NCBI GenBank assembly: GCA_045597865.1
Contig: JAZLKX010000018.1
Location: forward strand, 1 to 62,309
Length of the DNA stretch: 62,309 bases
Reading direction: 5' to 3'
Origin: Bacilli bacterium
Lineage (GTDB): Bacteria > Bacillota_I > Bacilli_A > RFN20 > CAG-826
The notes beneath the pieces are model-generated. The model saw only the letters and a program-made list of their open reading frames with translations. It was not told the origin of the DNA and searched no databases. Positions 21,394 through 41,898 of the stretch are shown in pieces. Numbering within the stretch: position 1 is the stretch's first letter; each line of letters opens with the position of its first letter. The position numbers were made by a program, and so were the translations under genes.

Positions 21394-21443
21394 AAAATCA
21401 ATTATACTTTTAATTTCGAATAATGTATAATACATTTCGCACT

Positions 21444-21534
21444 GGAGAATTACCCAAGAGGCTGAAGGGGCGGGCTTGGAAAGCTCGTAGGTTCCGAAAG
21501 GGGCGCTAGGGTTCAAATCCCTAATTCTCCGCCA
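21444..21534 (+). tRNA. tRNA-Ser(GGA)
   Basis: GGAGAAT/ATTCTCC acceptor, CGGGC-TTGGAAA-GCTCG, long variable arm, CCA. Confidence 0.95.
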
Positions 21535-22996: not shown

Positions 22997-23112
22997 AAAA
23001 ATCATACCTCCACATTTATATTTAACCATATATTTGTGATTAATAAAAACACAAATGTATGATTTAGTTTTCAAAATAGATAACAAAATCGTATCTTGAA
23101 AACTCTCAACAA

Positions 23113-23146
23113 AAAAACGCAACCATAGGATTATAGCTGCGTTTTA
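23113..23146 (-). terminator. Intrinsic terminator ending the 8-gene operon
   Basis: Minus strand AAAACGCAGC...GTTGCGTTTTTTT downstream of 23168. Confidence 0.6.
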
Positions 23147-23167: not shown

Positions 23168-24799
23168 TTAGCGAACAACGTGTTGCATTATATAGTATTC
23201 GTATGAACCTGTTGAATTATTGTAAGCAGAGAATGTGCTATAGCATGTATTGCTTGCAGAAATTACGAATGAACCTCTGTTAGTAAATGAATTATGTGAA
23301 TCTAAGCTTAATCTTGTTGTTCCTTTATTTGCATCTTGAATAACAATCTTGCCATCACTGTATGTGAAGACTAATTCACCAGTTGGTAAAGTAGAAAGTG
23401 CTGATAAGTTTGCCATTTCTTCTGCATAATAACGGCTTGGGCTTGTGACAGAGAAATTAATTAAATATGTCTTGCCGTCTTTCTTGCCATATGCAATGTT
23501 TGAAGATGTAATAGCATTAATTGAAGAATATTCAAATGGAACAATGACTTTTCCATCAATTGAGAATAAACCATACTTGCTGTTTTGCATTCCAACAAAT
23601 ACGTTTGCATTTGCATTGAAGCTTCTTCCAATTGATGAGAAGTCATTCAATAATTCAAGCTTCATTGAGTAAACTTTGCAGTTTTGTCCATCAACAATAA
23701 CATCGTTACCCATTGTGTCTTTAGCAACAATTGGATTATTAAGATTTGTAACATCATCATGCAAATTTAAATCTGCATCTACAATAAACATTCTGTAAAG
23801 ATTTTGATTGACAACCTTCTTGTCGGTTAATTCGTAAGCTTGAATTCCACCATAGGTGTAGAAATTACTTGCATCTTTAACAAGTTGGATGTAGCGGAAA
23901 TTTCCATAATAAGGAACTTCAATTTCTTTAGAAGCTCCGTTTGTGTAATCGATTCTTGTCATTGTGTAATCGTATTTATATCCGCCTCTTGAAATATCAA
24001 AATCTTTTGCATCTTCAGGTAATTCAATTTCGCTGTAGAAGAAGAAATACTTGCCAATTGTGAATGTTGGTTGTGCAAGTGGCATAATAAATTCAGAAAC
24101 AGTTCTGCCGTTGTATTCGACTTTTGCGTTGAAATCATGGAATGATGCTTTATATCCAGCATAACCAAAATCATCTAATTTGATTGCTGAACCATCATCT
24201 GTAATTTGATCACCGACATGGTATGTGTTATCAACAATATGTGAACCTTCAGCAGTGTAAGTTATATTGATAGATTGACCAGATGCATAAATTTCAAATT
24301 GAATAGAGGTATCAGAGTATGATCGTTCATATACACTGAATGAAGAATTTGAACTAAAAACTTCTTTTCCAAACATATCGTAGAAAACGAATCTGTAAGA
24401 AGTATTATTGTTAATGTATTCTTGAACAAGAACAAATTCGCCAAAATTAGAATAATTAATATTGTTGCTAAATGAAGTGTAATAAAGTCTATTAGAGCTT
24501 AAGGTGTTGTTAGCTGCAAAATATAAATAGGAATATCCATTATTATTATCTCTTAAAATATAGAACATTCCATAGTTTGAAGAAGAATACACAGTGTAAT
24601 CATTTAAATAGCTGTCAGCAACTCTCTTGAGTGAGGTGTATTCATAAGTTGATGAGGATGATGATGCATTATTTAAAATCATCTCTCTAGAAATAACGCT
24701 TTCCTTTTGTAATTTTAAAAGAGGATTTGCGTTTGTTTTTCCACATGAAGCAAGCGAAGCTGCTACAAGAGGAATAAATAAAAGTGCAGTTTTTTTCAT
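23168..24799 (-). CDS. Lipoprotein with WG-repeat-like segment
   Basis: Lipobox LASC; KYGLFSIDGKVIVPFEYSSI; Tyr/Ser-rich beta-type sequence. Confidence 0.6.
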   Translation of the reverse strand: MKKTALLFIPLVAASLASCGKTNANPLLKLQKESVISREMILNNASSSSSTYEYTSLKRVADSYLNDYTVYSSSNYGMFYILRDNNNGYSYLYFAANNTLSSNRLYYTSFSNNINYSNFGEFVLVQEYINNNTSYRFVFYDMFGKEVFSSNSSFSVYERSYSDTSIQFEIYASGQSINITYTAEGSHIVDNTYHVGDQITDDGSAIKLDDFGYAGYKASFHDFNAKVEYNGRTVSEFIMPLAQPTFTIGKYFFFYSEIELPEDAKDFDISRGGYKYDYTMTRIDYTNGASKEIEVPYYGNFRYIQLVKDASNFYTYGGIQAYELTDKKVVNQNLYRMFIVDADLNLHDDVTNLNNPIVAKDTMGNDVIVDGQNCKVYSMKLELLNDFSSIGRSFNANANVFVGMQNSKYGLFSIDGKVIVPFEYSSINAITSSNIAYGKKDGKTYLINFSVTSPSRYYAEEMANLSALSTLPTGELVFTYSDGKIVIQDANKGTTRLSLDSHNSFTNRGSFVISASNTCYSTFSAYNNSTGSYEYYIMQHVVR

Positions 24800-24817: not shown

Positions 24818-26389
24818 TTAAATTTTTGTTAATTGATGAATGTATTCAACACATTTAGGCATAGAGTCTTGTCCAAATGTTTCATCAAGTTCTTGAATTA
24901 ACTCTTCTGAACGAAGTTTAATTACAACAGGGTTCTTTGATTCTAACTTACGGAGAATCTTTTTGCAAATCAAATCATCAACAGCATCACTTTCTTTACC
25001 ACCGCATGCGACATAGATTGAAACGTATTTTCTTAATTGTCTTAAGATACGGTTTCCAAATGTAATATGGAAGGTTTTGATCATGTATTGATCAAATGAT
25101 TTGATGTTTTCATACATACCAGGGGATAACGGATTATCTACAAGTGCTGTAGAAATCATACTTTCAAAATTATCCATTGATAATTTAATTGAAGATTGAG
25201 AGATACCACTTACCTCTTTTTCAGCTTTCTTATCAAGGTTAAGTACCATTGCTCTATCATAAACCTTGTCAGAAATGGAGAATGTTGAGTCATCGTTATT
25301 AGCAGTTCCAATAAACCAAACGTTATTAGGAAGCTCAATCTTACCCCTTTTCATCTTCTTAGGATCACCGAATGCTCCAGTTGAAGAAACAACTAATTGT
25401 CTTTCTTGACCATAAGGGAGTTCAAGTAATGATAAGAATTCAGAGAAATAATACTCTACACGGGCAATATTCATTTCATCTAATACGATAATGTGTAGCG
25501 TATTATCGAAATTAGCCTCATAGAGAACCTTTAAAATGGTTGTCTCGTTGAACTTACCAGTGAATTCATTATAGTAACCTAATAGATCGCTTTTTTCTTT
25601 CCACATGGATTGGATTGGAACAACTGTTGATTCAACTCCAATAAATTTACCAAAGGCTAAGGCTAAGGATGTTTTACCTGTACCAGATAAGCCTTGTAAG
25701 ATAAGAAGTTTTGAAACACCTAGGGATGCAATAAATGCTCTAATGTTTTCAATTGAATAATATAAGCCTAATTCGTTAGCGAGATACTCTTTAAAGTTAT
25801 CGCATAAATTTGAAAGAGTTAAACCGTTTGTGGTATTAATTTTTTCAAAGTCAGAATGCTTAGCATCGAAGTCGAGAAGTTCAGGAAATCTAGACATGAT
25901 TTTAACTTCATCAAGTTTGGCCTCATTTCTAATAAATTCTTGATATGATGGAATGCTTCCTGATGTTGCAGCGTTAACAATAGCGACCACTACAAGGTTT
26001 AAAATAAGAATTCCAACCAAGACAAAGAAGATAATTGTTAATGCCCCACCATCAAAATAGAATCTTTGATACTTTGAACCTAAAAATAGAATTAAGATTA
26101 CAATCAAAAATGCTACTGCAATAAATGAAGCAATAAACGAAACCAATTCAAGTTTTGAAACAGGTGTTGAGAAGAAATGACGTCTTTGTTCAAATGTTTG
26201 TTGATCTTTGCTACCAAATTGATCCTTATCAGCTTTAACCTTTCTAACTTTTTCAGGTTTTTCAACTGGTGGAATCTCTTTAGCTTCATCTTTACTACTT
26301 GAATTACGGAAAAGTCTTCTTAAATTTCCATCTGAATCATACTTAAGAATAAGCTGGAATCGTTTAAACATGAATTTTAATTTATTCAT
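24818..26389 (-). CDS. Membrane-anchored McrB-like AAA+ GTPase (2 TM)
   Basis: Two TM helices; GLSGTGKTS, LDEMNIARVEYYFS, GTANNDD (NxxD), KVYDRA. Confidence 0.75.
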   Translation of the reverse strand: MNKLKFMFKRFQLILKYDSDGNLRRLFRNSSSKDEAKEIPPVEKPEKVRKVKADKDQFGSKDQQTFEQRRHFFSTPVSKLELVSFIASFIAVAFLIVILILFLGSKYQRFYFDGGALTIIFFVLVGILILNLVVVAIVNAATSGSIPSYQEFIRNEAKLDEVKIMSRFPELLDFDAKHSDFEKINTTNGLTLSNLCDNFKEYLANELGLYYSIENIRAFIASLGVSKLLILQGLSGTGKTSLALAFGKFIGVESTVVPIQSMWKEKSDLLGYYNEFTGKFNETTILKVLYEANFDNTLHIIVLDEMNIARVEYYFSEFLSLLELPYGQERQLVVSSTGAFGDPKKMKRGKIELPNNVWFIGTANNDDSTFSISDKVYDRAMVLNLDKKAEKEVSGISQSSIKLSMDNFESMISTALVDNPLSPGMYENIKSFDQYMIKTFHITFGNRILRQLRKYVSIYVACGGKESDAVDDLICKKILRKLESKNPVVIKLRSEELIQELDETFGQDSMPKCVEYIHQLTKI

Positions 26390-28433
26390 CTAAGCCTCCT
26401 TCCTCGTTATTTTCGTTTTTAGTAGGCTCCTCTAAAGCTTCTTCAGCTTCAGATTGAACCTCGTTATTTTCTTCACTAGTAGGCACTTCTTCGCTATTAA
26501 TAGCTTCAGATTGAGCCTCGGAAGTTTCGCTTGAAGAGGCTTCTTCTTCAACGTTAGTGGCCTCAGGTTCTTCAGGAACTTCATCTTCCTTTGTGTTTTC
26601 TGGGGTTAACACTACATCCTCTTCTTTAAGCATTTTATATTCAGGGTTAGTAATTTCTTCCATACCCTCAATAACTTTATTAACGCTTTCTTGTTCTTCT
26701 TTTGTCTTCACAAGAGCTTCTGCTTCTTTTGAATCGACGTATTCATTTTCTTTAACAATTTCTTCTACATCTTCAGAAGCTTTTCTTTTAAAGTAAGAAT
26801 TACGAATTTCGCGTTTAGCCTCTACCCATGACGCTTTATATAGCTTATCAAAGGCTTCTTTTTCCTTTTCTAATTGAAGGAATCTATCCTTTGATTTGAA
26901 CTCACTTGGAAGAGGTGGGTTTCTATCTTGAGTTCTAATAGCAGTTAATTCTGCTTCTTTTAGGGTAATAGCATCTTCATATGATTTATGAATTTGCTCA
27001 ATTTCTACTGTAGCAGCTTCTTTAATAGCGGCTACTTCGTTTTGACAATTGCTCACTATACCCTTAAGTTCAAAGATGTATGCTTGCTTTGTAGAAACCT
27101 TATTTTCAAGATTTGCAATTCTTGCATCATAATCGTTAATCATTTGAGCTTTTTCAGCTTCAAATTGAGCACGCATTTGATTTAATTCTTCTTCATGTGC
27201 AAATCTTAGTTCGCTCATTCTTTCTTCAGCATCACGCTTTAAATCATCTATTTCTTCTTGATGCTTTTGATTTAATTCAGCAATTTCTTGTTCATGTTTT
27301 TCGACAATGTTTGTTATTTCTGCTTTGAGTTCTTCAACTCTTTCAGTGAGAACTTTATAGCCGTTTTCCAATAAGTAAAGATATTCTTTGATGTTGCTAT
27401 TCTTTTCTAAAGCGTTCTTCATCATTTCATCAAGACGCTTTAACATCTCATCTTCTTGTTCTTTTTTACGGCGTTTCTCTTCTTCTAAATAGTTGACTCT
27501 AAGCTTTTCTTCAAGGTGGTTATTGTATTCATAGCCAAGGAATGAAGATAACTCAATGATGTCTACAAATGCATCATTTTGTTCTTGATTAAGGGGACAA
27601 ATCATCTCTTCGCTCTCAATGATTTCGTATCCTGGCTTATCATATGCGCAGGCATAATCATAAACAGCGAGCATTTCCTTGAAGTTAATATTCATCTTAA
27701 GGACATTTGTTTTTGTAATAGGTCTGGTGACCATTGGTGCTTTTGCAACTTCCAACATAAGTGGAGTTTTAAGAAGAACCATAATGTCATTAAGCATTAA
27801 TTTAATTCTTTCAACGAGTTTAGCGATCTTTGAATTTGCCATTGCAATAGGATCGTTTAAACGTTTTTCGTTGAGTTCTAATGTGAAGTCAACAGTACGA
27901 TTGACAAGAACAACGTTTTTGCGAACAAAAACTTTGCCTTCATACTTATTTACTGTTTCTTCAATTTTATCTAACTTAGTCGCAATAAAATCTCTAAGGA
28001 AAGATAAGCACGCGTATAAAACACGGTTTTCATAAATCTTGTAATCAATTTCCCTAGAAATCATAAGGAGTTTCTCTGGAAGAACATTTTCTTGTTCAGC
28101 GTCTGGAAGCTTAGTGATGTAATCACTATGCTTTGCTAAATCAGAAATCGATTCCTTAGAAACTCTTCTAATTTTTTCGATTGGTAAAACTTCGCCTTCA
28201 TTACGAATGAATTGGCGATCTTCCTTAATACATTTCTCTAGATACACTACTTTTGATTCAATTTCGTTAATCCAGTCTTCATCAATCTTACATTCGACTT
28301 TGATTTTAGAAATGTAGTTAGGATCCTTTTTTAAAGGTTGGGAGGCTTTCTTAAAGAGGTGATCTTCACGATTACCCTCAAGATTAGCCTTGTAATCCTT
28401 AAACGCTCTATAAAAATAATCTAATTGTTCCAT
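26382..28433 (-). CDS. DUF2357-domain protein with long coiled coil and acidic tail
   Basis: DYKIYENR motif typical of DUF2357/McrC-N; E/K/Q heptad region approx aa 310-560; E-rich low-complexity C-terminus; no PD-(D/E)XK seen. Confidence 0.65.
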   Translation of the reverse strand: MEQLDYFYRAFKDYKANLEGNREDHLFKKASQPLKKDPNYISKIKVECKIDEDWINEIESKVVYLEKCIKEDRQFIRNEGEVLPIEKIRRVSKESISDLAKHSDYITKLPDAEQENVLPEKLLMISREIDYKIYENRVLYACLSFLRDFIATKLDKIEETVNKYEGKVFVRKNVVLVNRTVDFTLELNEKRLNDPIAMANSKIAKLVERIKLMLNDIMVLLKTPLMLEVAKAPMVTRPITKTNVLKMNINFKEMLAVYDYACAYDKPGYEIIESEEMICPLNQEQNDAFVDIIELSSFLGYEYNNHLEEKLRVNYLEEEKRRKKEQEDEMLKRLDEMMKNALEKNSNIKEYLYLLENGYKVLTERVEELKAEITNIVEKHEQEIAELNQKHQEEIDDLKRDAEERMSELRFAHEEELNQMRAQFEAEKAQMINDYDARIANLENKVSTKQAYIFELKGIVSNCQNEVAAIKEAATVEIEQIHKSYEDAITLKEAELTAIRTQDRNPPLPSEFKSKDRFLQLEKEKEAFDKLYKASWVEAKREIRNSYFKRKASEDVEEIVKENEYVDSKEAEALVKTKEEQESVNKVIEGMEEITNPEYKMLKEEDVVLTPENTKEDEVPEEPEATNVEEEASSSETSEAQSEAINSEEVPTSEENNEVQSEAEEALEEPTKNENNEEGGLDE

Positions 28434-28438
28434 ATACG

Positions 28439-29710
28439 TTATGCGTTATTTGCGAATTGACGGACAACCTCTATACAATTAACCATTTCATCTTGGCCAA
28501 AGATTTCATCAAACTTAGCAATTAAATCTTCAGCTTTGGATTTAATGTAAACTGGGTTTTGGGTTTCAAGCTTTCTTAAAATCTTCTTAGCAATGATGTC
28601 ATCAACAGCTTCAAGCTCTTGTCCACCACAGCCCATGTAAATTGGAACGTATTTTTCGATTTGCATCATAATACGGTTACCAAATGTAACATGGAAGGTT
28701 GAAAGAAGGTATGCGTCCAATTCTTCAATCCTTTTCTTTGTTTGCTCAGATAAGTGATAATTTTGTAAGGCTGATTCACATAGAGCATTGAAACAGTCTT
28801 TTGAAATATGAATAGAGTTACAATCTCCAACAGGAACGAATTGTTCTGCTCTATTATCAAAGTTCATAATCATAGCACGGTCATAAACCTTATCTGAGAT
28901 AGCGAATGTAGAGTCATCGTTATTTGCAGTGCCAATAAACCAAACGTTATTAGTAAGAGCAATCTTACCATGGTGCATCTTTCTTGGGTCACCATTAGCG
29001 CCTGCAGCAGCAACGACTAAATTTCTTGTACTTGATGGAGGAAGTTCAAGTAAAGAAAGGAATTCTGAGAAATAATATTCAACTCTAGCAATATTAAGTT
29101 CATCAAGAACAATAACGAACATCTTGTTAGAGAAAGCAGCTTCATAAAGCTTTTCAAGAATCATTGTTTCGTTAAACTTACCAGTAAATTCGTTATAGTA
29201 GCCTAGTAAATCGCTTCTTTCCTTCCACATTGGTTGAACAGGAACGACTGTGGAACTAACGTTAATGAACTTACCAAAAGCAACGGCAATGGATGTTTTA
29301 CCAGTACCAGACATACCTTGTAAAATCATGGTTTTAGAAACACCAAGTGAGGCGATGAACTTTCTAATATCAATAATGTTGTAATAAAGACCAAGGTCAT
29401 GGGCCATGTAGTTTCTAAAAGTATCGCAAAGGGATGCTAGTGTTAAATTATCTGTACTCTTTTCTTCAGTCCAATCTGGATTGTTTCTGTCAAATTCAAG
29501 TAATTCTGGGAATCTTGACATTTTCTTTTTACGGTCTTTTTCTGCTTGATCCGTATTGTATTGACGTTTAAATTCTTGTTTTTTCTTAACGTCTAAAATC
29601 GTTGAGATTGTAATAACAAGAATAAGCAATGCCACTATAACGACATAAACGGCAATAGCGGTATTGGATGTAAAGAAATTATTTGAGTCAAATGTTCTTA
29701 ATGAATTCAT
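28439..29710 (-). CDS. Membrane-anchored McrB-like AAA+ GTPase (1 TM)
   Basis: One TM; GMSGTGKTS, LDELNIARVEYYFS, GTANNDD, KVYDRA; close paralog of 24818..26389. Confidence 0.75.
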   Translation of the reverse strand: MNSLRTFDSNNFFTSNTAIAVYVVIVALLILVITISTILDVKKKQEFKRQYNTDQAEKDRKKKMSRFPELLEFDRNNPDWTEEKSTDNLTLASLCDTFRNYMAHDLGLYYNIIDIRKFIASLGVSKTMILQGMSGTGKTSIAVAFGKFINVSSTVVPVQPMWKERSDLLGYYNEFTGKFNETMILEKLYEAAFSNKMFVIVLDELNIARVEYYFSEFLSLLELPPSSTRNLVVAAAGANGDPRKMHHGKIALTNNVWFIGTANNDDSTFAISDKVYDRAMIMNFDNRAEQFVPVGDCNSIHISKDCFNALCESALQNYHLSEQTKKRIEELDAYLLSTFHVTFGNRIMMQIEKYVPIYMGCGGQELEAVDDIIAKKILRKLETQNPVYIKSKAEDLIAKFDEIFGQDEMVNCIEVVRQFANNA

Positions 29711-29739: not shown

Positions 29740-32700
29740 TTATTCTGTTGTTTCTGGAGCTTGAAGAACTTCAATTTCTCCAGAGGAATTATAATGCCAA
29801 TAATTGTTCTTATCTCCTGGGTGTTTATCGGCATAATAATAAATTGTTGCAGTTTTATTTTTGGTATTTGTAAAGCCTGAAAAGTCTTTAGCAGTACCAT
29901 GGAAATATATTGCAGATAAGCCAGTAAAGTGCTCTAGGGTATCAGTTTTTAAACCTTTTTCCACTACAACAGCATCTGCTTCAATCGTACTTGAATTATA
30001 TGTAAAGTTTCTATTAACCTTAACAAGTTCAACATTTAGTATGTTATAGAATGTAGATGATGTTGCACAAACAATGGTTGCATTTCCAAAGTCAATATTG
30101 CTAACCCATGTTCCATAAAATACATTGCTACCTAAATTAACTGTACCACTTGCGAAGGTAACACTGTTAACTATGTCGCTTGTTGAATAATTGCTATAGT
30201 AATAGTAAGAGAAGGCATAATCACCAATAGTAATGCTTGTTGAATCAACCTTAATGCTTCTAACGGTTGGCATGCCGTAGAAAGCATATGATTCAAGAGT
30301 TGTAACCTTTGAAGGAATTACAATTGAAGTTAACTTATTGCTTGCAAATGCATATGAGCCTATGTAAGTTAATCCTGTTGGGAAAGAAATTGAAGATAAT
30401 GAACAGTTTTGGAATGCACAACTTTCAATTCTTGTAACGCCTGAAGGAAGATTAATTGAAGTAAGTGAACTACAATTTGATAGGAATCCTGAAGGAATAG
30501 TTGTTACCGAAGAATTAAGTGTTAATGTTTTTAATTCATCATTACCGTATAACATGCTGCTTGACAATGTTCCGGTATAACTAGATAAATCGACAGATGT
30601 AAGACTACAATAAGCAAATGCTTCGCTACCGATTGACTTAACAGTTGATGGAATAACAAGGGTTGTTAAACCAGTTGAAGCAAATGCACCATATCCAATA
30701 GTTGATAATTTTGAAGGGAAAGTGAATGATTTTAGATCGTAGCAGCAATTAAATGCAGAACTACCAATTGTGGTAAGTGAGGAAGCGCTGCTTGTGTCAA
30801 CACTAACTAACTCATCGTTGTTATAGAAAGCACTATTACCAATTGAAACAAGATTAGAACCAAGTTTTAAACTCCTAATATCGTTTTGAATGAATGCATT
30901 ATCACCAATAGTAGTTAAACTATTTGGGAAATTAACTGTAGACAATCTACTACAATATTCAAATGCGTAATTGCCAATTGTTTCAAGTGATGTGGCACTT
31001 AAATTAATATTTGTGATATTTGTGCAGTTAGAGAATGCATAATCTCCAATTGTAACTAAGCCACTACCAAAGGTAACGCTATTAATACTTTGACAATAAT
31101 AGAATGCTTGATAACCAATACTCTTTAAAGTGGATGGGAATGTAACACTAGTGAGTGTTGAGTTATTTGAGAATGCTGATTGTCCAATAGCAGTAACACC
31201 CTCTGGGATCTTTAAGCTAGTAAGACTTGATGGAACTCTAATAATTTGAGTGTAATCAGCACTATATAAGACTTTTTCATATGAAACGTATGTTGTGTTT
31301 CCTTCTTCACATACGTATTCTTTAACGTTGTAATTTGAAGGGGCGTTGTCAAGACTTGACATGTTGCTTGTAACAACGAATGTACCTCTCCATTGATATG
31401 GAACACAAACTACTCTACTTCTATCATTGGAATAAACTATTCCATTAATTACTTTGAAATAGGTATTTTTACCGTTATCAACAAAGTTTTCAAAATTGTA
31501 ACATGAATTAAATGCATAAGAACCAATTGATGTTAAATTCACAGGAATTTCAAATTCAGTGAAACAACATTCAGAGAATGCATTAGAACCAATTGAAGTT
31601 ACATTATCACCTAATGAAACGTTTCTTAAATTTGAGCAGTAATAGAAAGCACTAGAACCAATTGAACATCTAGCGTCATTAATGGTTAATGTTTCCAAAT
31701 AATAGCATGAACTGAATGCTGAATCAGAAATTGTCTCGACTGAACTTGGAATAGTAACGCTTCTAAGTATGTTCTTATTATAGAAAGCATTATAACCAAT
31801 AGTTTTAACACCTTCAGGTATAACTAAATTAGTTTCATCAAAGCCTGGAAGTGCATAATAAAGTGTTTCTTTATCTTTAGAATATAAAATATTGTCTTCA
31901 ATTACTAAGAATGGGTTTTCTTCATCAATATTAATTTCCGTAATTGAACTTGAATAAATAGTTTCTCTATCAAGACTAACTAGATCTGGGCCTAAGCTAA
32001 TTGAATGAAGGTTAGGACAATCATAGAAAACATTGTAGCTCATTGTTTGAAGCTTATTGGAAAGATAAATCTCTCTTAAATTTGTACAATAAGCAAAAGC
32101 AAAATAATCAATGAAGGTAACGTTATCTTCAATAAAGACTTTTGTAATTTCAGAATGATTTTCAAATGCATAGCTTGAAATACCTGCAACATCATATGTT
32201 TTATAACCATTGTTATATGTCTTTGGAATATAAATGTCGCTCTCTGAATAGCCTGAATAGCTGTAGACATAACATGTTGATGTTGCGTCATCAAAAGAGT
32301 AATTAAGACCATAAGTTCCAGATCTCACTACTTTCTTATATAAAGCGTAAACATCAATATCGTTATAAACTTTATCAAGGTTTCTATCCCAAGATGTGAA
32401 TTGGTATTCATAACGACCGTCTAGTGGTCTAGTAGGATTTGAGTTTGGATAAGTTGATGCTTCACCATAATTTACGTAGTCTGTATAAAGTAAAGTACCA
32501 TCATAGTTCTTATAATTAACTGTACAAACAGTTGGGCATGATTCATAACATGCGTGGACTATTGTGTCTTCAACGATGTAATCAATATCTACATCCCAAC
32601 CAATAAATGTAAAGCTTTCGCCACTTGAAGCTGGTTTTACTGGTGTATTACCGCTATAAACGGCTGTTCCACCATAAGGAACACTTGTAATATCCAAAAC

Positions 32701-33276
32701 TGAGTCATCATAGTTAAGGAATTTAACTTTGTAACCAAAGTCTTTTTCAACGTATTGAGCCACAAAGGTTGTATTTTCATTAATGTTATCGAGCGATTTG
32801 TTCCAACCAATAAATGTGTAGGTTGTGTTACCTTCATCTGGTCTAGTTGGTGTTTGGCCACCATAAACAGCGTTCTCGCCTTCTTTAACGTAAGAAAAAT
32901 CAAGCTCGCTACCATCATAGTTAACAAAGTCAACAAAGTAAGTTGGTATTCTTTCTGATTTATAAACAGCGTAGACGTTTAAATCACTTTGGATGTTATT
33001 AAGGTTTCTATTCCAACCAGCAAAGTTGTATCTAAAGTTTTCATCATTTGGTCTAGTTGGGTTTGCACCTTTATATACAGCGTTTTTGCCTACATTTACA
33101 GTAGTTGAGTATAAGAAAGAGTCATCATAGTTATAGAAGGAAACAAGGAAAGATTTTTCAACGTCTGGAATGACAACGTCTCCTCCAGGTTCGTCAAAAC
33201 TTTCGCAACCACTTGCGAATCCTGCTATCAGCGATAGTGACAGCACCGAAATTAATAAATGTTTAGTCCTTTTCAT
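29740..33276 (-). CDS. BspA-type leucine-rich-repeat (LRR_5) lipoprotein with InlB-B/Flg_new-like repeats
   Basis: Lipobox FASGC; four V.F.NYD...GW repeats; many IG..AF..C..L..I.IP..V repeats. Confidence 0.85.
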   Translation of the reverse strand: MKRTKHLLISVLSLSLIAGFASGCESFDEPGGDVVIPDVEKSFLVSFYNYDDSFLYSTTVNVGKNAVYKGANPTRPNDENFRYNFAGWNRNLNNIQSDLNVYAVYKSERIPTYFVDFVNYDGSELDFSYVKEGENAVYGGQTPTRPDEGNTTYTFIGWNKSLDNINENTTFVAQYVEKDFGYKVKFLNYDDSVLDITSVPYGGTAVYSGNTPVKPASSGESFTFIGWDVDIDYIVEDTIVHACYESCPTVCTVNYKNYDGTLLYTDYVNYGEASTYPNSNPTRPLDGRYEYQFTSWDRNLDKVYNDIDVYALYKKVVRSGTYGLNYSFDDATSTCYVYSYSGYSESDIYIPKTYNNGYKTYDVAGISSYAFENHSEITKVFIEDNVTFIDYFAFAYCTNLREIYLSNKLQTMSYNVFYDCPNLHSISLGPDLVSLDRETIYSSSITEINIDEENPFLVIEDNILYSKDKETLYYALPGFDETNLVIPEGVKTIGYNAFYNKNILRSVTIPSSVETISDSAFSSCYYLETLTINDARCSIGSSAFYYCSNLRNVSLGDNVTSIGSNAFSECCFTEFEIPVNLTSIGSYAFNSCYNFENFVDNGKNTYFKVINGIVYSNDRSRVVCVPYQWRGTFVVTSNMSSLDNAPSNYNVKEYVCEEGNTTYVSYEKVLYSADYTQIIRVPSSLTSLKIPEGVTAIGQSAFSNNSTLTSVTFPSTLKSIGYQAFYYCQSINSVTFGSGLVTIGDYAFSNCTNITNINLSATSLETIGNYAFEYCSRLSTVNFPNSLTTIGDNAFIQNDIRSLKLGSNLVSIGNSAFYNNDELVSVDTSSASSLTTIGSSAFNCCYDLKSFTFPSKLSTIGYGAFASTGLTTLVIPSTVKSIGSEAFAYCSLTSVDLSSYTGTLSSSMLYGNDELKTLTLNSSVTTIPSGFLSNCSSLTSINLPSGVTRIESCAFQNCSLSSISFPTGLTYIGSYAFASNKLTSIVIPSKVTTLESYAFYGMPTVRSIKVDSTSITIGDYAFSYYYYSNYSTSDIVNSVTFASGTVNLGSNVFYGTWVSNIDFGNATIVCATSSTFYNILNVELVKVNRNFTYNSSTIEADAVVVEKGLKTDTLEHFTGLSAIYFHGTAKDFSGFTNTKNKTATIYYYADKHPGDKNNYWHYNSSGEIEVLQAPETTE

Positions 33277-36200
33277 AAATAACTACCTTTCCTGGTTTTA
33301 ACTCAATACTATAGTTGTAGGTTACCTCTACCTTTTCGCCCATTGTGTTGTAGCGATAAATATGAGGTGTACCAATTGGATTAATGACGCCTTCTTCGCC
33401 AGTTATATCAATTGGTTTATTAACTTTTTCATATTCAATAAATTCACCTGGAGCAAGCGTACCCACTAAGAAGTAAGGTGTTGAATCAAATGGAAGACCA
33501 TCAAATTCTTTTGAACCGCTTGGTGATGTAATTACAAGTTGACGTTTAACAACATAACGTTCAACATCTCCAAATGTTAAATCAAAGTCATTATCACGTA
33601 TGTCAGTGTCTCTTGTTGAGTGATAAGTTGGGCTTGCTACAAAGTCGTTTCCGTATACATAAGTACCAACGTCTATCATCTTTTTAAGCTCTGTCCATGT
33701 CATATCTAACGAATAAGTAAGTGGCAATTCACCATCTGAAATGTATGATGGGCTTGAGAACTCTGTAACATTGGTTTGAAGAATTTCATCATTCTCAAAT
33801 CCGTGATCAGTACCATCATATGTTAATTTTTCTTCGATAAGTGATATTTCAATTGGGCATGGTTCAATAACAATGGATCCATAAATAAATGTAATATCGT
33901 AATCAAGTGTGACATCTAATCCTTGAGGATTTGTAATTTTTACTGTAACTTCATTGTCACCTGAATCATCAACGTGTTTAGCGCTTGTTGCAGAGAAATT
34001 TGAGTAAGCAATTTCATCTCCATCTGCTAGTGTTCCTTTTGTAATAGCGGCAGATGAACTTTCAAATGGTAAGCCATCAAATACTTTCTCGTGGTCTTCT
34101 GTTGTAATTGTGATTGGTCTAGGATCAATCCAAATATTTTGAGCTTTTAAGGTAATGTTGTAATTGCTTGTTACATCAATATCTTCACTTGTATAAACTT
34201 CAACACTTGTTGGCATATTCTTTGTAACGCCATCAACACCATCAAATGTATGAGTGATGGATGGTAAGCCATAGAACTTCAAGTAATCACCCTCAAGAAG
34301 TCTATCAACTGAGTGAAGTGTTGAAGTAAATGGTGTTCCGTCATAAACCTTTGAGTTTTCAAGCATCACTACGCTTATGTCGCGTGGTCTAATAGTTAAA
34401 ATACCGTTATTTTCAAATGTAACGTTATAGTTATCTGTTGCATCATAAAGTCCAAGAGATGGTGAGTTATGAGTAATTTTAAACTTGCTGTAGTCGAAAT
34501 TTAATACGTACATGCCAGCATCAATACCATTACAAGTGACTTCAATGCCACTAATCGATTCGTATTCAGCTAAGCCATCTCCTACTACTTCCCAAGTTTT
34601 AACCTTGCTTGAAATATCAGAGTTGCGATCGTATTCATCAATACAATCAATTGTTCTAACAGTGATGTTACGTTTGTTAATGATTAAGGTGCCATTTGTA
34701 ACAACTGTAATGTCATAGCAATCTGTAACATCAACATAACCATTGCCTTCTTCAAGGTGTTCAATCTTAATTTCACCAAGGGCTGAACATGGGGTTTCAC
34801 TTACTTTGAATGGGTTGTTAGTTGGAGTAAATCTAATAACGTCAGTGTCTGCTAAGGAACCAGAAGAAATTTGAACTGGTTTGCTAACATAATTATAAAT
34901 ATGGTCACCCATATACGTAATAGTTTGGGATGAAATGTTAATTGTGATTGGACGTTTATTAATGATAATTGAGTCTACTTTAGATGCTTCATCTGGAATA
35001 ACGTTGTAGTTTCCAAGAACGTTTGTTCCGTATCTAGAATCAATAATCTTTGTTAATTCGAAGTCTTCATTGGTGTATGTTCCAACTTTGTAGAAACTTG
35101 AATTATTAAAGCATGTTGCATCAATTACATCTTTGCTTAAAAGAGCTGAGGTGTCATACCAATAACCTGAAGTATGGTATTTGCCATCATATGTGTATGT
35201 ATTAGTGATAGCTTTGACTTCAAGATCAATCTTATTAATCTTAATTGTGCCTGGGTCTTTGCTAATGAGGTAACAATCAGTAAAGTCTTCACGTGTGTTT
35301 TTATCAACAATGGTAACGTTTAAAGCTTTTTCGTGTGTTCCAACATCAGTAGCAGTTCCATCTGCAGTAACAATGATGTCATCTTTGTCTGCAAGGCTAC
35401 CTTCAGTAATAGACCAGTTAGTATTAGTGATTGAATAACCTGAATAATCAACTTCTACATTTTCACCTTGAACTGAGATTTCTCTTTGGGCAATGGTTGT
35501 ATAACCATAGTCATAATCAATAATGTAGTTACTTGAAATATCTACATCACCTTCATAGATCTTTGCAGTAAATGTATTTTCGTATGTGCTTGCGCGGACA
35601 AATTGTTCAGGATTTGTCATTGTGTATTTAACTGACAACTTCTCTGTAATACCATCACTACCTTCTTTGATATAGATTTCATCACCAGTGAATGTAAAAG
35701 AATGATCTTCGCCATCATAGGTTAAATCAATGTCTTTACTCGCAAAGGTAATAGGCTTCTTTTCAATTTCAAGACTTCCGTAATTGGTTTTAATTGAATA
35801 GTGCTTAGTTACGTCTAAACCGTTTTCATCCTTAATAATGTATTCTTGAACGTTATCTTTAACGCCTACATTTGAAAACGCTGTAGAGGAAACTACATTT
35901 AATACGTCACCACTAACAAGTGATCCTGAGGTAATAGTATAACTTTCATCACTTAAGTTAGTGCCATCAAAACCTTTTACTGAGGAACCACTAGCTATAG
36001 TAATGCTTCTTGCTAAAATATTGATATCTTTTGGATAAGATGCAAATGTATAGTTTTTAGTAACATCTTTTCCATCAAGAGATAAAACTTTAAGCTTAGT
36101 GCTATCAACCATTACTTTAAATGTATTGGTTTGTTTATTTTGATAAATATAGCTAATTGTACTTGTGTCACAATGATCTGATTTAACAAAGTCTTCAGTA

Positions 36201-36631
36201 AAAACTGCAGATGGAGTGTCACCATATGTCATTTCGTTAGTGACAATTTGAACTCCAATCTCTTTTGGAACAATATCAAAGTATTGGGTTTTACCATAAT
36301 AGTAAGAACCACCGCTTTTCTTTCCTAAGCTTCTAAACTTGTATGAACCTACATCACTTGGACATTCTTCAAACCATTCTTCACCATCTCTAGTCGCAAA
36401 TTCATACTTAACTGAAGACATGAATGCATTTGATTTATAAGTAATGTTTTCGCCATACTCATAACGAGCTTTAAGCTTTTCTACATCCGAAACAATGCCT
36501 TTAGTAGTAATTAATGTAACGGTTGTAGCTACGACAAGAGCACTAATACCACCAATTAAGAAACGATGCTTAAAAGCGCTATGACGAATCTTAGCGAGTT
36601 TAATAATCTTCTGCTCGTACTCTTTATACAT
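33263..36631 (-). CDS. Membrane-anchored surface protein with MBG-like Ig-fold repeats
   Basis: N-terminal TM; repeated RPITI....K.YDG...G.L..GD...DVT.NY.I...G.L.I units. Confidence 0.7.
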   Translation of the reverse strand: MYKEYEQKIIKLAKIRHSAFKHRFLIGGISALVVATTVTLITTKGIVSDVEKLKARYEYGENITYKSNAFMSSVKYEFATRDGEEWFEECPSDVGSYKFRSLGKKSGGSYYYGKTQYFDIVPKEIGVQIVTNEMTYGDTPSAVFTEDFVKSDHCDTSTISYIYQNKQTNTFKVMVDSTKLKVLSLDGKDVTKNYTFASYPKDINILARSITIASGSSVKGFDGTNLSDESYTITSGSLVSGDVLNVVSSTAFSNVGVKDNVQEYIIKDENGLDVTKHYSIKTNYGSLEIEKKPITFASKDIDLTYDGEDHSFTFTGDEIYIKEGSDGITEKLSVKYTMTNPEQFVRASTYENTFTAKIYEGDVDISSNYIIDYDYGYTTIAQREISVQGENVEVDYSGYSITNTNWSITEGSLADKDDIIVTADGTATDVGTHEKALNVTIVDKNTREDFTDCYLISKDPGTIKINKIDLEVKAITNTYTYDGKYHTSGYWYDTSALLSKDVIDATCFNNSSFYKVGTYTNEDFELTKIIDSRYGTNVLGNYNVIPDEASKVDSIIINKRPITINISSQTITYMGDHIYNYVSKPVQISSGSLADTDVIRFTPTNNPFKVSETPCSALGEIKIEHLEEGNGYVDVTDCYDITVVTNGTLIINKRNITVRTIDCIDEYDRNSDISSKVKTWEVVGDGLAEYESISGIEVTCNGIDAGMYVLNFDYSKFKITHNSPSLGLYDATDNYNVTFENNGILTIRPRDISVVMLENSKVYDGTPFTSTLHSVDRLLEGDYLKFYGLPSITHTFDGVDGVTKNMPTSVEVYTSEDIDVTSNYNITLKAQNIWIDPRPITITTEDHEKVFDGLPFESSSAAITKGTLADGDEIAYSNFSATSAKHVDDSGDNEVTVKITNPQGLDVTLDYDITFIYGSIVIEPCPIEISLIEEKLTYDGTDHGFENDEILQTNVTEFSSPSYISDGELPLTYSLDMTWTELKKMIDVGTYVYGNDFVASPTYHSTRDTDIRDNDFDLTFGDVERYVVKRQLVITSPSGSKEFDGLPFDSTPYFLVGTLAPGEFIEYEKVNKPIDITGEEGVINPIGTPHIYRYNTMGEKVEVTYNYSIELKPGKVVIYEKD

Positions 36632-36632
36632 C

Positions 36633-39600
36633 CTATAATACCGTCAACTTTCCATAGACAAAGCTAACAATGTAGTAGTTAGTAACGTCGTTTCCATATG
36701 TATCAGTAATACTTAATGTGTCATAGTCAATAAAGTTATCTGAAACACCAGGTTTAGTTTGTGAACCTGTCATCTTAACACTTACTGTATGGTTTGCAGG
36801 CATTGCACCTGAAAGAACATTTACAGTAAATGTATTGTTAGTTAATGGGGTTCCATCACGAACCTTTGTAGCATCACCTGAAATAATTTGAATGCTACAT
36901 TGAGTAATCCTGTATGATTCGTAAATTAAATTTACTCTGCCTTTGTATTCACTTGTTACATCTGCACCGTATTCATTGAAGATCTTTGGTTGTGCACGTG
37001 TAACGTATGTACCTGGAATGGATTCACCAGTTTCAGTATTTGCCTCAAGATGATGGCCTGGTTTAAGGCTACCTATGAGTGATGCGTGTGCAGTCATTGG
37101 AGTTCCGTCAAATGGTTTAGACGATTGATCTGGAGAAACTCTAATTGTGATATCTGCATCTGGATTTGCAGGTCCAAATGGATTATATGGATTTAAGTGT
37201 GTGCCTGTACCAGTGTCATCTGGAGTTCCATCAATTGCAATCCAACCAAGATTTGAAATATAAACTTCACACCAAGCGTATGAGTTATTTGTGGTAACAG
37301 TTGCGTAACCACCGTTTGATTCTGAAGCATAACCAGTAACGTAACGAGCTGGAATACCAAGTGATCTATAAATAGCAGTTAATGCTGAAGCAAAGTCACT
37401 TGCTACACCACTCTTGGCTGTGTATAAGAAGTGTTCGATATAGTTAGAACCTGTTGGGTAGGTTTCAAATCCATAATCGTGTTTTGCGTATTCTTTAATA
37501 AAGTTAGAAATTCTAATAATATTTGAAATAGATGTACCTTGAAGGTTGTTTTCTGAAACAAATCTACTTGCAACACCTTTAGTGTAATTATCTAATTGAG
37601 TGTAATGTGAGTATGCGTAATCTCTATACGCCATTTCTTCTAATCTAATTTCGTCATTAGAGAATGTAACGTTGTTGACTAAAGACTCAAGGTTAATTGA
37701 GTTAACTGTAAGTGGAGAGAATGTGTAATCAGTTGGATTATCAACATTGTGTTTAGTGTAGGCATCACTACCTAATGTATCAATTTGGGTTTGGCTATAC
37801 ATTGGAAGTAATGAGTACTTATGGTATTCAAAGTCTTTGTATTCAATTGATATGTCGTATTCATTTAATCCAATGCGGTCAATCTTATCGCTTGCAAAGT
37901 AAAGTGGAGAAATTGAAGTCATGTCAAAATTATCGACCTTAGTTGGTTTAGTCCAAACGTTATGATCTAAGTTTTGATATGAATACTCTCTAAATAAGAG
38001 TTTACCTTTTGCTTCTGTCTCGTATGAGAAAATTGAAGTTGGTTTTTCTCTATCAACTGGTGTAGATGCAATATTTCCAGGAGTACCTGCTCCACCATGA
38101 CCAAGTCCACCTGCTAAAGCGTATTTAGCTTGTAATGTATAGGATTCATCTGCTGGATATGGTTTCATGTGCCATCCAGTAAAGACTGTTTCTTTTTTAT
38201 TAACTTTGGAAACTGGTTCACCTAAAGTTTCTTCTGGGTAAACTGGCATTTCACCATCACTTACGTAATTTTCATACAAAAGTGAGAAGTCGTCATTTCT
38301 AAATGTAACTATGTGTTTTTCGCCATAAGCTGGATTATAGGCTTCATAAGTAGCGAAATCATATTCAATCCAGACACCACCTGAGAGAAAAAGGAATTTA
38401 TCAAACTTACCAGTCCATGTGTAAGTCCAGCCATTGCTATCTTCTCTAGTTAAGTCTTTGCCTTTATAGTGGGATTCACCATAAACCTCCAAATCACCAT
38501 CTATAATCTTGTAAACGTATTGGTCAATAGTTAACAAAGTGAAGTCCCAGTCATAGAAGTAAGCTTGAATTATATCTCCTTCTTCCTTTTCGGTTTCACC
38601 ACCACCTGTACCGCTTCCGCCTTGGCCTCCGCCACCAGAGCCGCCTCCACCAGGACCGCCAGTACCGATATCTTCTGGACCAATGGAGTGTTCTTTTGGA
38701 ATAGCGTCAAATAAGGCATATGTTGTTGTGTCATCATAAACTTCAGTTACATCAACACTCCAGCCTTTAAATTCATATGTATAGGTTTCATCTTCTTCTC
38801 TAGTTGGGGTTTCACCAGAATAGTAAGCTGTTTCGCCTGCGTATACATGTGTTTCGTGTAAAACAGTTTTGTCCCAGTTACAGAAAGTGACGGTTAATTC
38901 ATCATCGATCTCATCAAACACTGGGTAAACAGAGAAGTCATTTTGAACGTTCTCGAGCATTCTATCCCAACCTCTAAACTCATAAATCTTGTGATCTGAG
39001 TCTGGTTTAGTTGGTAAAGCGCCTTCGTAATGGGCAGTTTCACCACGTTCCACTGTATCAACAAATAAAATGGTATCGTCATAGTTTCTAAATGTAACTG
39101 TGTATTGCTCAACAGCTTCTTGATATACAGCGTGCACTGTTAAGTCTTCAGTTACAGTTTCAATTGATTTGTCCCATCCAATAAAGTCATAACGGACTCC
39201 GTTTTCACTTGGTTTAATTGGAAGATCTCCATCGTAGTAGGCACTTTCTCCTACAGATACGACATCATAACCAAGTAATGTGTCATCATAGTTAAGGAAT
39301 GTAACACGTACAGTAAGTGGTTCTTCAACAAATTGGGCAGTAAATGTTGTGTCTTCCGTAACACCATTAACGTTATTGTCCCAACCTGAGAATGTATATT
39401 TAAAGTTACCAGTTGATTCTTTAACTGGTGTAAATCCTCTATATTCTGCTGTTCCGTTATATGGAACTCTTGAATCTTTGTAAAGGAAAGTTCCGTCATA
39501 GTTCACAAATGTTGCAGTGAAATAACGGTCTTCTGGTTTATATGTAGCAGTATATGTTGCATTTTTGGTTGCTGCTACAATTCTTGGATCCCATCCATCA

Positions 39601-41862: not shown

Positions 41863-41898
41863 ATTCACTTATAATGAACCGACTAATTGTACGTGTAT

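Follow-up and report, generated by a model that had tools for sequence, protein, structure and literature searches.

McrBC is the textbook example of a GTP-driven restriction motor, and the locus described here raises the question of what such a motor does when both of its nucleic-acid-handling parts are gone and it is placed in the membrane beside giant surface proteins. The locus lies in a 62,309-nucleotide (nt) stretch of DNA (contig JAZLKX010000018.1 of assembly GCA_045597865.1; "the window" denotes this whole stretch) from a Bacilli bacterium of the GTDB lineage Bacillota_I; Bacilli_A; RFN20; CAG-826. It consists of three genes, G1 and G2 for predicted membrane-anchored, McrB-like GTPases and, between them, M for a putative DUF2357-type protein with a coiled coil. 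This architecture was stable in the locus and in at least 224 relatives. The reading preferred here, at a probability of roughly one half, is that the trio is a McrBC-derived GTPase machine that has no nuclease, is anchored in the membrane, and serves the export, anchoring, or assembly of the giant surface proteins encoded beside it.

Conservation of the trio and its giant neighbors

G1, M, and G2 were three co-oriented, tightly packed minus-strand open reading frames (ORFs), with 5 nt between G1 and M and an 8-nt overlap of M with G2. A locus scan using one genome per species confirmed 224 loci encoding a relative of M, and 80 of these were kept for analysis. By record titles, the loci came from two classes, the Bacilli (Erysipelotrichaceae, Acholeplasmatales, Anaeroplasma, Izemoplasmataceae, and Candidatus Onthovivens) and the Clostridia (Christensenellaceae, Borkfalkiaceae, and Pumilibacter). 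Two cultured carriers, Pumilibacter intestinalis and P. muris, were among the matches and make experiments possible. Wherever at least 900 nt of flank was available, a GTPase gene lay directly upstream of M (42 of 42) and directly downstream (45 of 45). One transmembrane (TM) helix was counted in each of the 40 upstream GTPases with a complete N-terminus and two in each of the 56 downstream GTPases for which an N-terminus was present.

Gene neighborhoods were surveyed in the 44 loci longer than 10 kb, with Pfam scans of the representatives of conserved clusters only. A cluster characterized by a transglutaminase core, MBG/YDG repeats, and AgI/II domains (c2) was present in 40 of the 44 loci and a cluster of BspA-type leucine-rich repeat (LRR) proteins (c3) in 16, while an N-terminal hydrophobic segment was found in 69 of 72 c2 proteins. 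In the window, the protein of 1122 amino acids (aa) matched the c2 genes of related loci L035 and L037 over its full length with 36% identity, the L035 copy having a weak MBG_2 match. The 1139-aa protein matched cluster c2/c3, and the 1178-aa LRR lipoprotein was similar along its entire length to the LRR genes that precede G1 in L035, L037, and L041. Across Bacilli and Clostridia, the loci thus kept the gene order G1-M-G2, the type of each anchor, and the giant secreted neighbors; conservation of the neighborhood across genomes was one of the checks suggested in an earlier reading of the sequence alone (the first-pass annotation).

A third GTPase-like gene preceded G1 in 32 of 39 testable loci and was absent from the window. 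Its Walker A, Walker B, and signature motifs were all lost (31 sequences), and in three Clostridia representatives GH3_C and Fn3-like domains were placed ahead of two TM helices. In most Clostridia loci the gene encoded a protein of approximately 1100–1350 aa that combines the GH3_C and Fn3-like domains and the two TM helices with a GTPase-like module (e.g., L050:4181-7522, L059:3647-7528, and L087:4001-7537), termed a pseudo-GTPase because its module has lost these three motifs. As it has two TM helices, both of its large domains should share one side of the membrane.

Predicted membrane-anchored GTPases of the McrB type

The G1 and G2 proteins were 57% identical (238 of 415 residues, E 4e-175) and had in common the Walker A motif GTGKT, the Walker B block DE(L/M)NIARVEYYF, the signature GTANNDDST, and the element MSRFPELL(E/D)FD. 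The three ORFs of the first-pass annotation, and its description of two as paralogous GTPases with Walker A, Walker B, and signature motifs, were in this way recovered. MSRFPELL had been regarded as a linker; with F67 and L70 invariant in 36 relatives, it is, judging from the alignment, the conserved first element of the GTPase module instead.

Kyte-Doolittle 19-residue peaks were 3.03 for G1 and 3.26 and 3.27 for G2, compared to a maximum of 1.39 in M, predicting a single TM helix for G1, a hairpin of two for G2, and none for M, consistent with the one or two helices already noted ahead of the GTPase modules. The AlphaFold2 (AF2) model of G1 (mean predicted local distance difference test score, pLDDT, of 87.3) contained one continuous helix over residues 16–62. 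With the positive-inside rule applied by eye, both GTPase modules are predicted on the cytoplasmic side, as basic residues were located behind the G1 helix and on either flank of the G2 hairpin.

Sequence comparisons associated both proteins with McrB. Pfam AAA_5 was above the cut-off in G1 (E 7.1e-7) and G2 (E 4.5e-7), and the PADLOC model PDC-M26A matched G1 with E 8.3e-45 and G2 with E 1e-47, compared to only 5.5e-4 for E. coli McrB. The best PDB sequence match of G1 was E. coli McrB 6hz4 (E 6e-4), with 6ut6, 7vsr, and 6ut3 as further matches, and McrB made up four of the five phmmer matches up to E 1. MoxR was absent from the PDB sequence matches up to E 1 and from the NCBIfam matches of the GTPases, in which the best row was McrB at 21.7 bits, far under its cut-off of 637 bits. 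A profile of the 36-member G family aligned by hhalign to E. coli McrB with a probability of 96.8% (E 2.1e-10, 166 columns). The signature N-N-D-D aligned without gaps to NTAD of E. coli McrB, and N-[NKI]-D-D was present in 20 of 20 family members examined. Walker A and the N-x-D-D signature were intact in 40 of 40 G1 and 41 of 41 G2 proteins, and the commonest Walker B blocks kept their DE pair. From these alignments, G1 and G2 are McrB-like GTPases with a complete McrB-type catalytic set, and GTP hydrolysis is predicted. The grouping with MoxR that had been named as the competing possibility found no sequence match, and the fold alone does not discriminate: dynein, MCM, MoxR, BchI, and McrB were tied in the Foldseek and VIA-align searches with G1, so the fold does not settle the clade, although McrB 6ut6_D gave the lowest root-mean-square deviation (rmsd) and the highest identity among the fold matches.

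Within the McrB-like GTPases, the N-x-D-D signature has the form used to define the NxD branch (NxD, in most cases with D or E next), which holds the CoCoNuT and CoCoPALM systems (Bell et al., eLife 2024; PMC11090510). It is equally readable as NxxD, such that the McrB-type NxxD motif first assigned is supported by the alignment to McrB but is not the only form that fits. Three observations favor the NxD branch. The published CnuB has the same blocks when compared by eye, including a Walker B of ...DEMNLARVEYYF..., PV(K/Q)P(N/M)W...DLLGYYN, and N-M-D-E at the signature position; the PDC-M26A E-values point the same way; and PDC-M26A covers nearly the whole length of a CoCoNuT-like GTPase adjoining a superfamily 1 (SF1) helicase and a DUF2357 protein. 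This tentative placement was made from motifs read by eye and the PADLOC model.

One catalytic module on two anchors

In 26 of 34 genomes, the G1 and G2 modules had a DNA identity of 98% or more across a stretch of at least 900 nt, and 10 of the 34 pairs were 100% identical over about 1.1 kb. The near-identical tract began just past the anchor region, and 23 pairs were identical in protein. A tree of 132 GTPase modules paired G1 with G2 by genome and gave no separate clades for the two, and the G1/G2 labels required 38–39 changes, the same as shuffled labels. Assemblers may overstate exact identity between the modules, and pairs with 1 to 68 mismatches show two real copies. Because of this near-identity and the pairing by genome, the conserved feature is one catalytic module on two different anchors and not two kinds of catalytic subunit.

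The first-pass annotation had proposed a possibly hetero-hexameric motor of two different GTPases, which in that form these data do not support. That G1 and G2 are distinct subunit types of one obligate 3+3 hetero-hexamer would agree with the constant presence of two genes with different anchors and with the divergence of the modules in the window and its three nearest relatives (69–80% DNA identity). The pair in the window was the most diverged of all (68.9% over 888 nt), followed by those of L037, L035, and L039 (75–80%). The identity in most genomes and the lack of separate clades nevertheless make such an arrangement very improbable: the catalytic modules are therefore interchangeable and only the anchors differ, although mixed rings may still occur.

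Of the 80 kept loci, 36 were on contigs of 4 kb or less, and many contigs ended a few hundred bases either side of M because the near-identical direct repeats of approximately 1.1 kb formed by G1 and G2 break short-read assemblies. The breaks leave M alone on contigs of 2–4 kb (related loci L035-L114), and the system is therefore under-seen in metagenome-assembled genomes. The L106 contig from a P. muris isolate is named "cov_385", which may mean a high copy number or a collapsed repeat. In addition, a contig from the DNA run X1 fused an N-terminal portion of G1 to a C-terminal portion of G2, the two meeting at homologous positions (window 29326 / 25739) with 36 other letters between, at a depth of approximately 5 compared to approximately 9–11 around it. 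This fusion could be an M-less recombinant or a relative's gene aligned in two pieces.

The middle protein

The M family comprised 396 proteins at E ≤ 1e-3 among 8000 candidates scored, and the N-domain alone gathered 1202 clusters (50% identity) at E ≤ 1e-3. Its alignment revealed four regions: the N-domain (residues 1–310), a coiled coil that varies in length, a motif of 40 residues, and a tail that is likewise variable. The coiled coil, which had been noticed in the first reading and was supported by the alignment and by profile matches, spanned about 200 residues in M (approximately 305–500) and differed in length among orthologues. The 40-residue motif had F518, L521, W536, K540, and I543 as invariant residues, while the tail was acidic in the window and variable or absent in orthologues.

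The DUF2357 family (PF09823) was above the Pfam cut-off in 5 of 27 M orthologues (best E 2.9e-7) and in 5 of the 16 partners from the paralogous systems. In the relatives, the matches fell at about profile positions 88–198 and always covered the invariant Y-E-N stretch. This stretch is part of YENR (M residues 134–137), of which Y134, E135, and N136 were invariant in 62 aligned relatives, and the published CnuC shows I-P-E-N-R-Y by eye. The putative assignment of M to DUF2357 is well supported by this transitive sequence evidence and only weakly by structure. The DUF2357 domain and YENR motif claimed for the middle gene at first pass accordingly stood as regards the invariant residues and the matches of relatives, but not as a Pfam match of M itself.

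Residues 64–102 contained the invariant K67, E71, R73, Q74, F75, I76, and P84–K87, and residues 70–130 were modeled with a pLDDT of 50–65; we infer that residues 64–102 are a candidate for a finger contacting the GTPase ring. When both GTPase modules were combined with the N-domain of M in a complex prediction (994 residues, own alignments), the score was 0.00, "no answer", which counts neither for nor against binding.

No nuclease family was identified by Pfam and alignment in M, the 27 orthologues, or the 16 paralogous partners, nor was one present as a conserved neighbor, in agreement with the nuclease-free module originally described. Past residue 310, the family alignment held only the variable coiled coil, the 40-residue motif, and the variable tail, which by this alignment leaves no room for a nuclease; the C-terminal region was checked by alignment and Pfam only, as the AF2 model covers residues 1–310. 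A hidden PD-(D/E)xK nuclease in the N-domain was considered and dropped, since E71, R73, Q74, and P84–K87 form no D...(D/E)xK pattern by eye.

Proposed function and its alternatives

By analogy with the McrBC complex structures (Nirwan 2019 and Niu 2020, as summarized in PMC11090510), the GTPase modules would assemble into hexameric rings at the cytoplasmic membrane face, and the M N-domain would insert into the ring and stimulate GTP hydrolysis. The coiled coil would dimerize M, as the nuclease domains do in McrBC, and dimerized M could link a pair of rings, perhaps with a different anchor type on each. From the synteny, the machine would serve the presumably co-transcribed BspA-LRR lipoprotein, transglutaminase-core protein, and MBG/YDG-repeat protein in export, membrane anchoring, clustering, or assembly, acting via the membrane or via the N-terminal anchors of the giants, and would not restrict nucleic acid. 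We infer that such an envelope role is more likely than restriction, and it is the most likely function because the DNA-reading and DNA-cutting parts have been lost and the trio is tied to an operon of exported giants across two classes. The published association of CoCoPALM with pilus-assembly signal peptidases and the bifidobacterial PFNA cluster, both outlined below, are precedents for such a role. Of the two functional options offered at first pass, the one involving surface proteins is accordingly favored and defense ranked lower. A more elaborate version is held tentatively, with the balance somewhat against it: an undescribed envelope machine of gut Bacillota, in which a GTPase ring on two alternative anchors, with its modules kept identical by gene conversion, is bridged to a second ring by a coiled-coil McrC relative, gains a dead GTPase with a GH3-like domain in Clostridia, and uses GTP to install, hold, or move the giant adhesin/transglutaminase/LRR cassette as a functional analogue of secretion or gliding motors.

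Several observations weigh against the preferred reading. The functional evidence is gene neighborhood, the family descends from restriction systems, and the GTPases match a PADLOC model of defense candidates. The extracellular parts of the GTPases are very small (about 16 residues in G1 and 13 in G2), and contact with the giant proteins must therefore be in or below the membrane. In structure, the GTPases were left unseparated from MoxR (2r44 with Z 15.5 and McrB 6ut6_D with Z 14.4). M itself had no Pfam match, even at E 10, and no NCBIfam or PADLOC match. Foldseek with its N-domain (AF2 model of residues 1–310, pLDDT 81.1) found no match at E ≤ 0.001, McrC 6hz4_M being at rank 10 with E 0.28 and the highest probability listed. 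VIA-align placed McrC structures at rank 3 (6ut5_G, Z 8.4, rmsd 6.1, 131 aligned) and rank 5 (6hz4_M, Z 7.8, rmsd 6.8, 135 aligned) of 48,161 chains, with the longest alignments among the top rows, at Z-scores that are within noise for helical folds. An hhalign comparison of the M family to E. coli McrC gave nothing (probability 0.3%), a weak test because E. coli McrC belongs to PF10117 and not to DUF2357. Among PDB sequences, M alone retrieved nothing meaningful and the M family profile retrieved coiled-coil proteins only, because its alignment included the coiled coil. Finally, the distribution was patchy, which fits an accessory system that could be defense: within the window's order, 30 of 401 genomes had an M orthologue (E ≤ 1e-40), as did 9 of 70 genera, and in its own genus only 1 of 21 other genomes had one.

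An anti-phage or abortive-infection system would have M sense an invader or nucleic acid and switch on the GTPase rings, with the TM helices permeabilizing the membrane in place of a nuclease. TM effectors are common in abortive-infection systems, and the derivation from Type IV restriction, the PDC-M26A matches, the patchy occurrence, the three paralogous systems in the same genome, and a related GTPase/DUF2357 pair on an unverified phage scaffold all agree with such a role. The neighborhood does not: no defense genes were conserved around the trio, which was accompanied by giant surface-protein genes in the great majority of the long loci of both classes, and no helicase, HEPN, or other nuclease was found among its neighbors (window genes and conserved clusters). 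The trio also lacks a DNA- or RNA-binding domain along with the nuclease and the CoCoNuT helicase/HEPN partners. M and its orthologues matched no PADLOC model, save for one weak coiled-coil-type match to JetC (E 4.8e-4), M was unmatched in 72,556 plasmids, and the pair on the phage scaffold is of a different, CoCoNuT-like subtype with an SF1 helicase. Defense is on this evidence unlikely.

A secretion or delivery motor is a further alternative, in which the transglutaminase/papain-like and LRR giants are exported toxins or adhesins and the TM-GTPase rings take the role of the EssC-type ATPases of type VII secretion. The transglutaminase core of the giant neighbors has a cysteine-protease fold, the giants carry N-terminal export signals, and EssC-like ATPases and WXG100 proteins are attached to some CoCoNuTs, according to Bell et al. 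(PMC11090510). Those export signals are, however, ordinary Sec- or lipoprotein-type N-termini that need no special channel, and a protein-conducting pore would have few helices to draw on, with one or two TM helices in each subunit. Among the conserved neighbors (small ORFs being only partly examined), neither immunity genes nor WXG100, LXG, or Rhs-type elements were seen. Delivery is considered quite unlikely. If the link between the trio and the surface proteins is functional, the preferred envelope role would mean that gut bacteria, abundant and for the most part uncultured, have exapted a defense motor for the biology of their surface, and it would provide a handle on how they deploy megadalton adhesins.

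Organization of the locus in the window

The trio is part of a run of eight genes with intergenic gaps of -14 to +29 nt (Table 1). In 5' to 3' order, the run encodes the 601-aa secreted protein, the 1139-aa transglutaminase-core protein, the 1122-aa c2 protein, the 1178-aa BspA-LRR lipoprotein, G1, M, G2, and the 543-aa lipoprotein. The gene for the 543-aa lipoprotein is probably the last of the operon; it had no match to the neighbor clusters and was not conserved in related loci.

Table 1. Coordinates of the trio, its sequence elements, and the adjoining genes in the window.
Feature	Position	Strand	Evidence
G1, McrB-like GTPase (predicted), 423 aa, one N-terminal TM helix	28439..29710	-	ORF, Pfam, PADLOC, PDB match, hhalign, AF2
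G1 TM helix (predicted), residues 17-38	29597..29662	-	Kyte-Doolittle 19-residue peak 3.03; AF2 helix 16-62
G1 Walker A, LQGMSGTGKTS	29291..29323	-	Motif reading
G1 Walker B block, IVLDELNIARVEYYF	29069..29113	-	Motif reading
G1 signature GTANNDDST (N-x-D-D)	28907..28933	-	Motif reading and alignment to E. coli McrB
M, putative DUF2357-type McrC_N, coiled coil, C-motif, and acidic tail, 683 aa	26382..28433	-	ORF, family alignments
M N-domain, residues 1-310	27504..28433	-	Conserved block in family alignments A1/A2; AF2
M most conserved stretch, residues 64-102 (KEDRQFIRN..PIEK)	28128..28244	-	Alignment A1
M YENR region, residues 131-140	28014..28043	-	Alignment of 62 sequences
M coiled-coil region, about residues 305-500	26934..27521	-	Alignment A1, profile matches
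M conserved C-terminal motif, residues 510-548	26790..26906	-	Invariant columns in A1
M acidic low-complexity tail, residues 549-683	26385..26789	-	Sequence and alignment A1
G2, McrB-like GTPase (predicted), 523 aa, two TM helices behind an 80-aa basic N-tail	24818..26389	-	ORF, Pfam, PADLOC
G2 TM helix 1 (predicted), residues 83-104	26078..26143	-	Kyte-Doolittle 19-residue peak 3.26
G2 TM helix 2 (predicted), residues 117-141	25967..26041	-	Kyte-Doolittle 19-residue peak 3.27
G2 signature GTANNDDST	25283..25309	-	Motif reading
1178-aa BspA-type LRR lipoprotein, 29 nt upstream of G1	29740..33276	-	Pfam LRR_5 E 3.3e-155; lipobox by eye
1122-aa giant with N-terminal TM anchor, member of MBG/YDG-type cluster c2	33263..36631	-	Full-length match to c2 genes
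1139-aa secreted protein, transglutaminase core, signal-like N-terminus	36633..40052	-	Pfam Transglut_core E 1.3e-19
601-aa secreted protein, akin to the N-part of LRR giants; opens the run	40063..41868	-	Sequence matches; no Pfam match
543-aa lipoprotein, 18 nt 3' of G2, weak WG_beta_rep match	23168..24799	-	ORF, Pfam
Terminator-like hairpin, 14 pairs and T run, after the 543-aa gene	23114..23145	-	Consensus scan only

In one metatranscriptome (contigs), short pieces of six operon genes with 90–99+% identity were found in 13 of 30 bins, which may reflect DNA carry-over and does not demonstrate transcription. Two raw-read metatranscriptomes, approximately 2% sampled, gave 2 and 0 reads for the operon.

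Other genes of the window include a 2857-aa protein (47358-55931, minus strand) with Listeria-Bacteroides repeats, Big_3 domains, and a region resembling the N-part of LRR giants; its gene lies 5 kb from the operon and adds a further giant surface protein. Just past the terminator-like hairpin, a lipoprotein (21614-23122, minus strand) had a weak match to the choloylglycine-hydrolase family (CBAH); its listed TTG start is probably too far upstream, as the lipoprotein signal starts at an internal Met. A 296-aa protein (19451-20341, minus strand) with the motif HPFxDGNGRxGR is of the Fic/Fido type by eye with a likely N-terminal helix-turn-helix. A tRNA-Ser(GGA) gene (21444-21534, plus strand) overlaps the first approximately 25 codons of a listed 359-aa ORF (20437-21516, minus strand), and the true start of this ORF is therefore further in.

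Other GTPase/partner systems

Two more TM-GTPase/partner pairs were identified in the same genome, on contigs C16 and C1. The C16 system (L017:4424-13642) encodes a 513-aa GTPase, in which a short heptad-like segment comes after the TM helix. The DUF2357 partner has 1313 aa and matches PADLOC PDC-S18 in its middle part. S24/S26 signal-peptidase-like genes are present on both sides (two in all), and an EAL-GGDEF protein adjoins. The gene set was kept in relatives (15 loci), along with two unknown genes of approximately 350 aa upstream, and the locus fits the published CoCoPALM description. The C1 system (L018:7265-10876) comprises a 686-aa GTPase with four to five TM helices and a 510-aa partner, neighbored by polysaccharide-synthesis and UDP-GlcNAc-epimerase genes, and the same arrangement was found in the relatives L032 and L033. 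The GTPase gene was directly upstream of its partner in 18 of 18 paralogous loci, and GTPases on both sides of the partner were found only in the M-type family.

A phage search with G1 gave one match, to a fecal scaffold labeled "UNVERIFIED Bacteriophage sp." (L115; MT835511.1, 34037-45916). On this scaffold, an SF1 helicase (AAA_11/AAA_12) is encoded together with a 535-aa protein, a GTPase of 824 aa that matches PDC-M26A (E 2.3e-52), and a DUF2357-like partner of 689 aa, a set of a different, CoCoNuT-like subtype.

Comparison with known systems

Canonical McrBC from E. coli and T. gammatolerans (6hz4, 6ut5, and 6ut6) shares with the trio the AAA+ core, the Walker A and B motifs, the sensor Asn/Asp signature, and a separate adjacent activator gene. 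The two differ at both ends of the machine: the N-terminal DNA-reading domain of McrB contrasts with TM helices in G1 and G2, and the PD-(D/E)xK nuclease of McrC with a coiled coil on M. E. coli McrC is in addition of family PF10117, without detectable profile similarity to M.

The bifidobacterial PFNA cluster (pkb2-fn3-aaa-atp-duf58-tgm), as outlined in PMC8430577, combines a MoxR AAA+ protein, DUF58, a membrane transglutaminase, and a large FN3 adhesin. Like the trio, it encodes an AAA_5-class NTPase and partner along with a transglutaminase-like protein and a large secreted adhesin, and the fold of G1 matches MoxR structures as well as McrB. In contrast to PFNA/MoxR, the sequence matches of G1 and G2 are to McrB and none are to MoxR, the trio's partner is of the DUF2357 type and not DUF58/VWA, and its NTPase is itself predicted to be membrane-anchored.

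The CoCoNuT systems (CnuB/CnuC, CnuH helicase, and HEPN or other nucleases) share the GTPase motif suite by eye and the PDC-M26A match. G1 and G2 differ in having TM anchors instead of a long coiled coil, and the trio has no helicase or associated nuclease tandem and has different neighbors.

The NxD branch was recognized only in 2024, and its membrane-linked class, CoCoPALM, was named by Bell et al. with details deferred to a later paper (PMC11090510), i.e., named but not described; Bell et al. may hold unpublished data on this clade. As sketched there, CoCoPALM GTPases have an FtsB-like TM helix and coiled coil (HHpred E-value for FtsB 1.2) and are linked to pilus-assembly signal peptidases (SipA-like), and some McrC homologues of the branch are without a PD-(D/E)xK domain (PMC11090510). 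Full-text literature searches for CoCoPALM, or for McrB with pilus, signal peptidase, or coiled-coil, returned nothing relevant beyond Bell et al. and its preprint. Among the matches listed, only the CoCoNuT paper and its preprint were relevant for DUF2357, and none for McrB, transglutaminase, and BspA in combination described the trio by title or abstract.

CoCoPALM is the closest named kind, and the motifs of the trio place it, with some probability, within or close beside the NxD (CoCoNuT/CoCoPALM) branch. Both have an N-x-D(D/E) McrB-like GTPase with an N-terminal TM helix, a McrC homologue with DUF2357 (putative in M) and a coiled coil (no nuclease being mentioned for CoCoPALM in its brief published outline), and a genomic link to cell-surface assembly genes. 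In addition, CoCoPALM-like GTPases of the same order (T1) and the G1/G2 clade fell within one unresolved group of 129 rows in the GTPase tree. The trio differs from CoCoPALM in having two GTPase genes flanking the partner, to which related Clostridia add a third, dead one. It is without a signal-peptidase neighbor (S24/S26, SipA-like): Pfam found no Peptidase_S24/S26 among the window genes between 21.6 and 41.9 kb, and no signal-peptidase cluster was conserved among the Pfam-scanned cluster representatives of the 44 long loci. Its neighbors are the giant transglutaminase, LRR, and MBG proteins instead of a pilus-type set, and the segment after the G1 TM helix is only about 25 residues long, in which an FtsB-like coiled coil is not evident.

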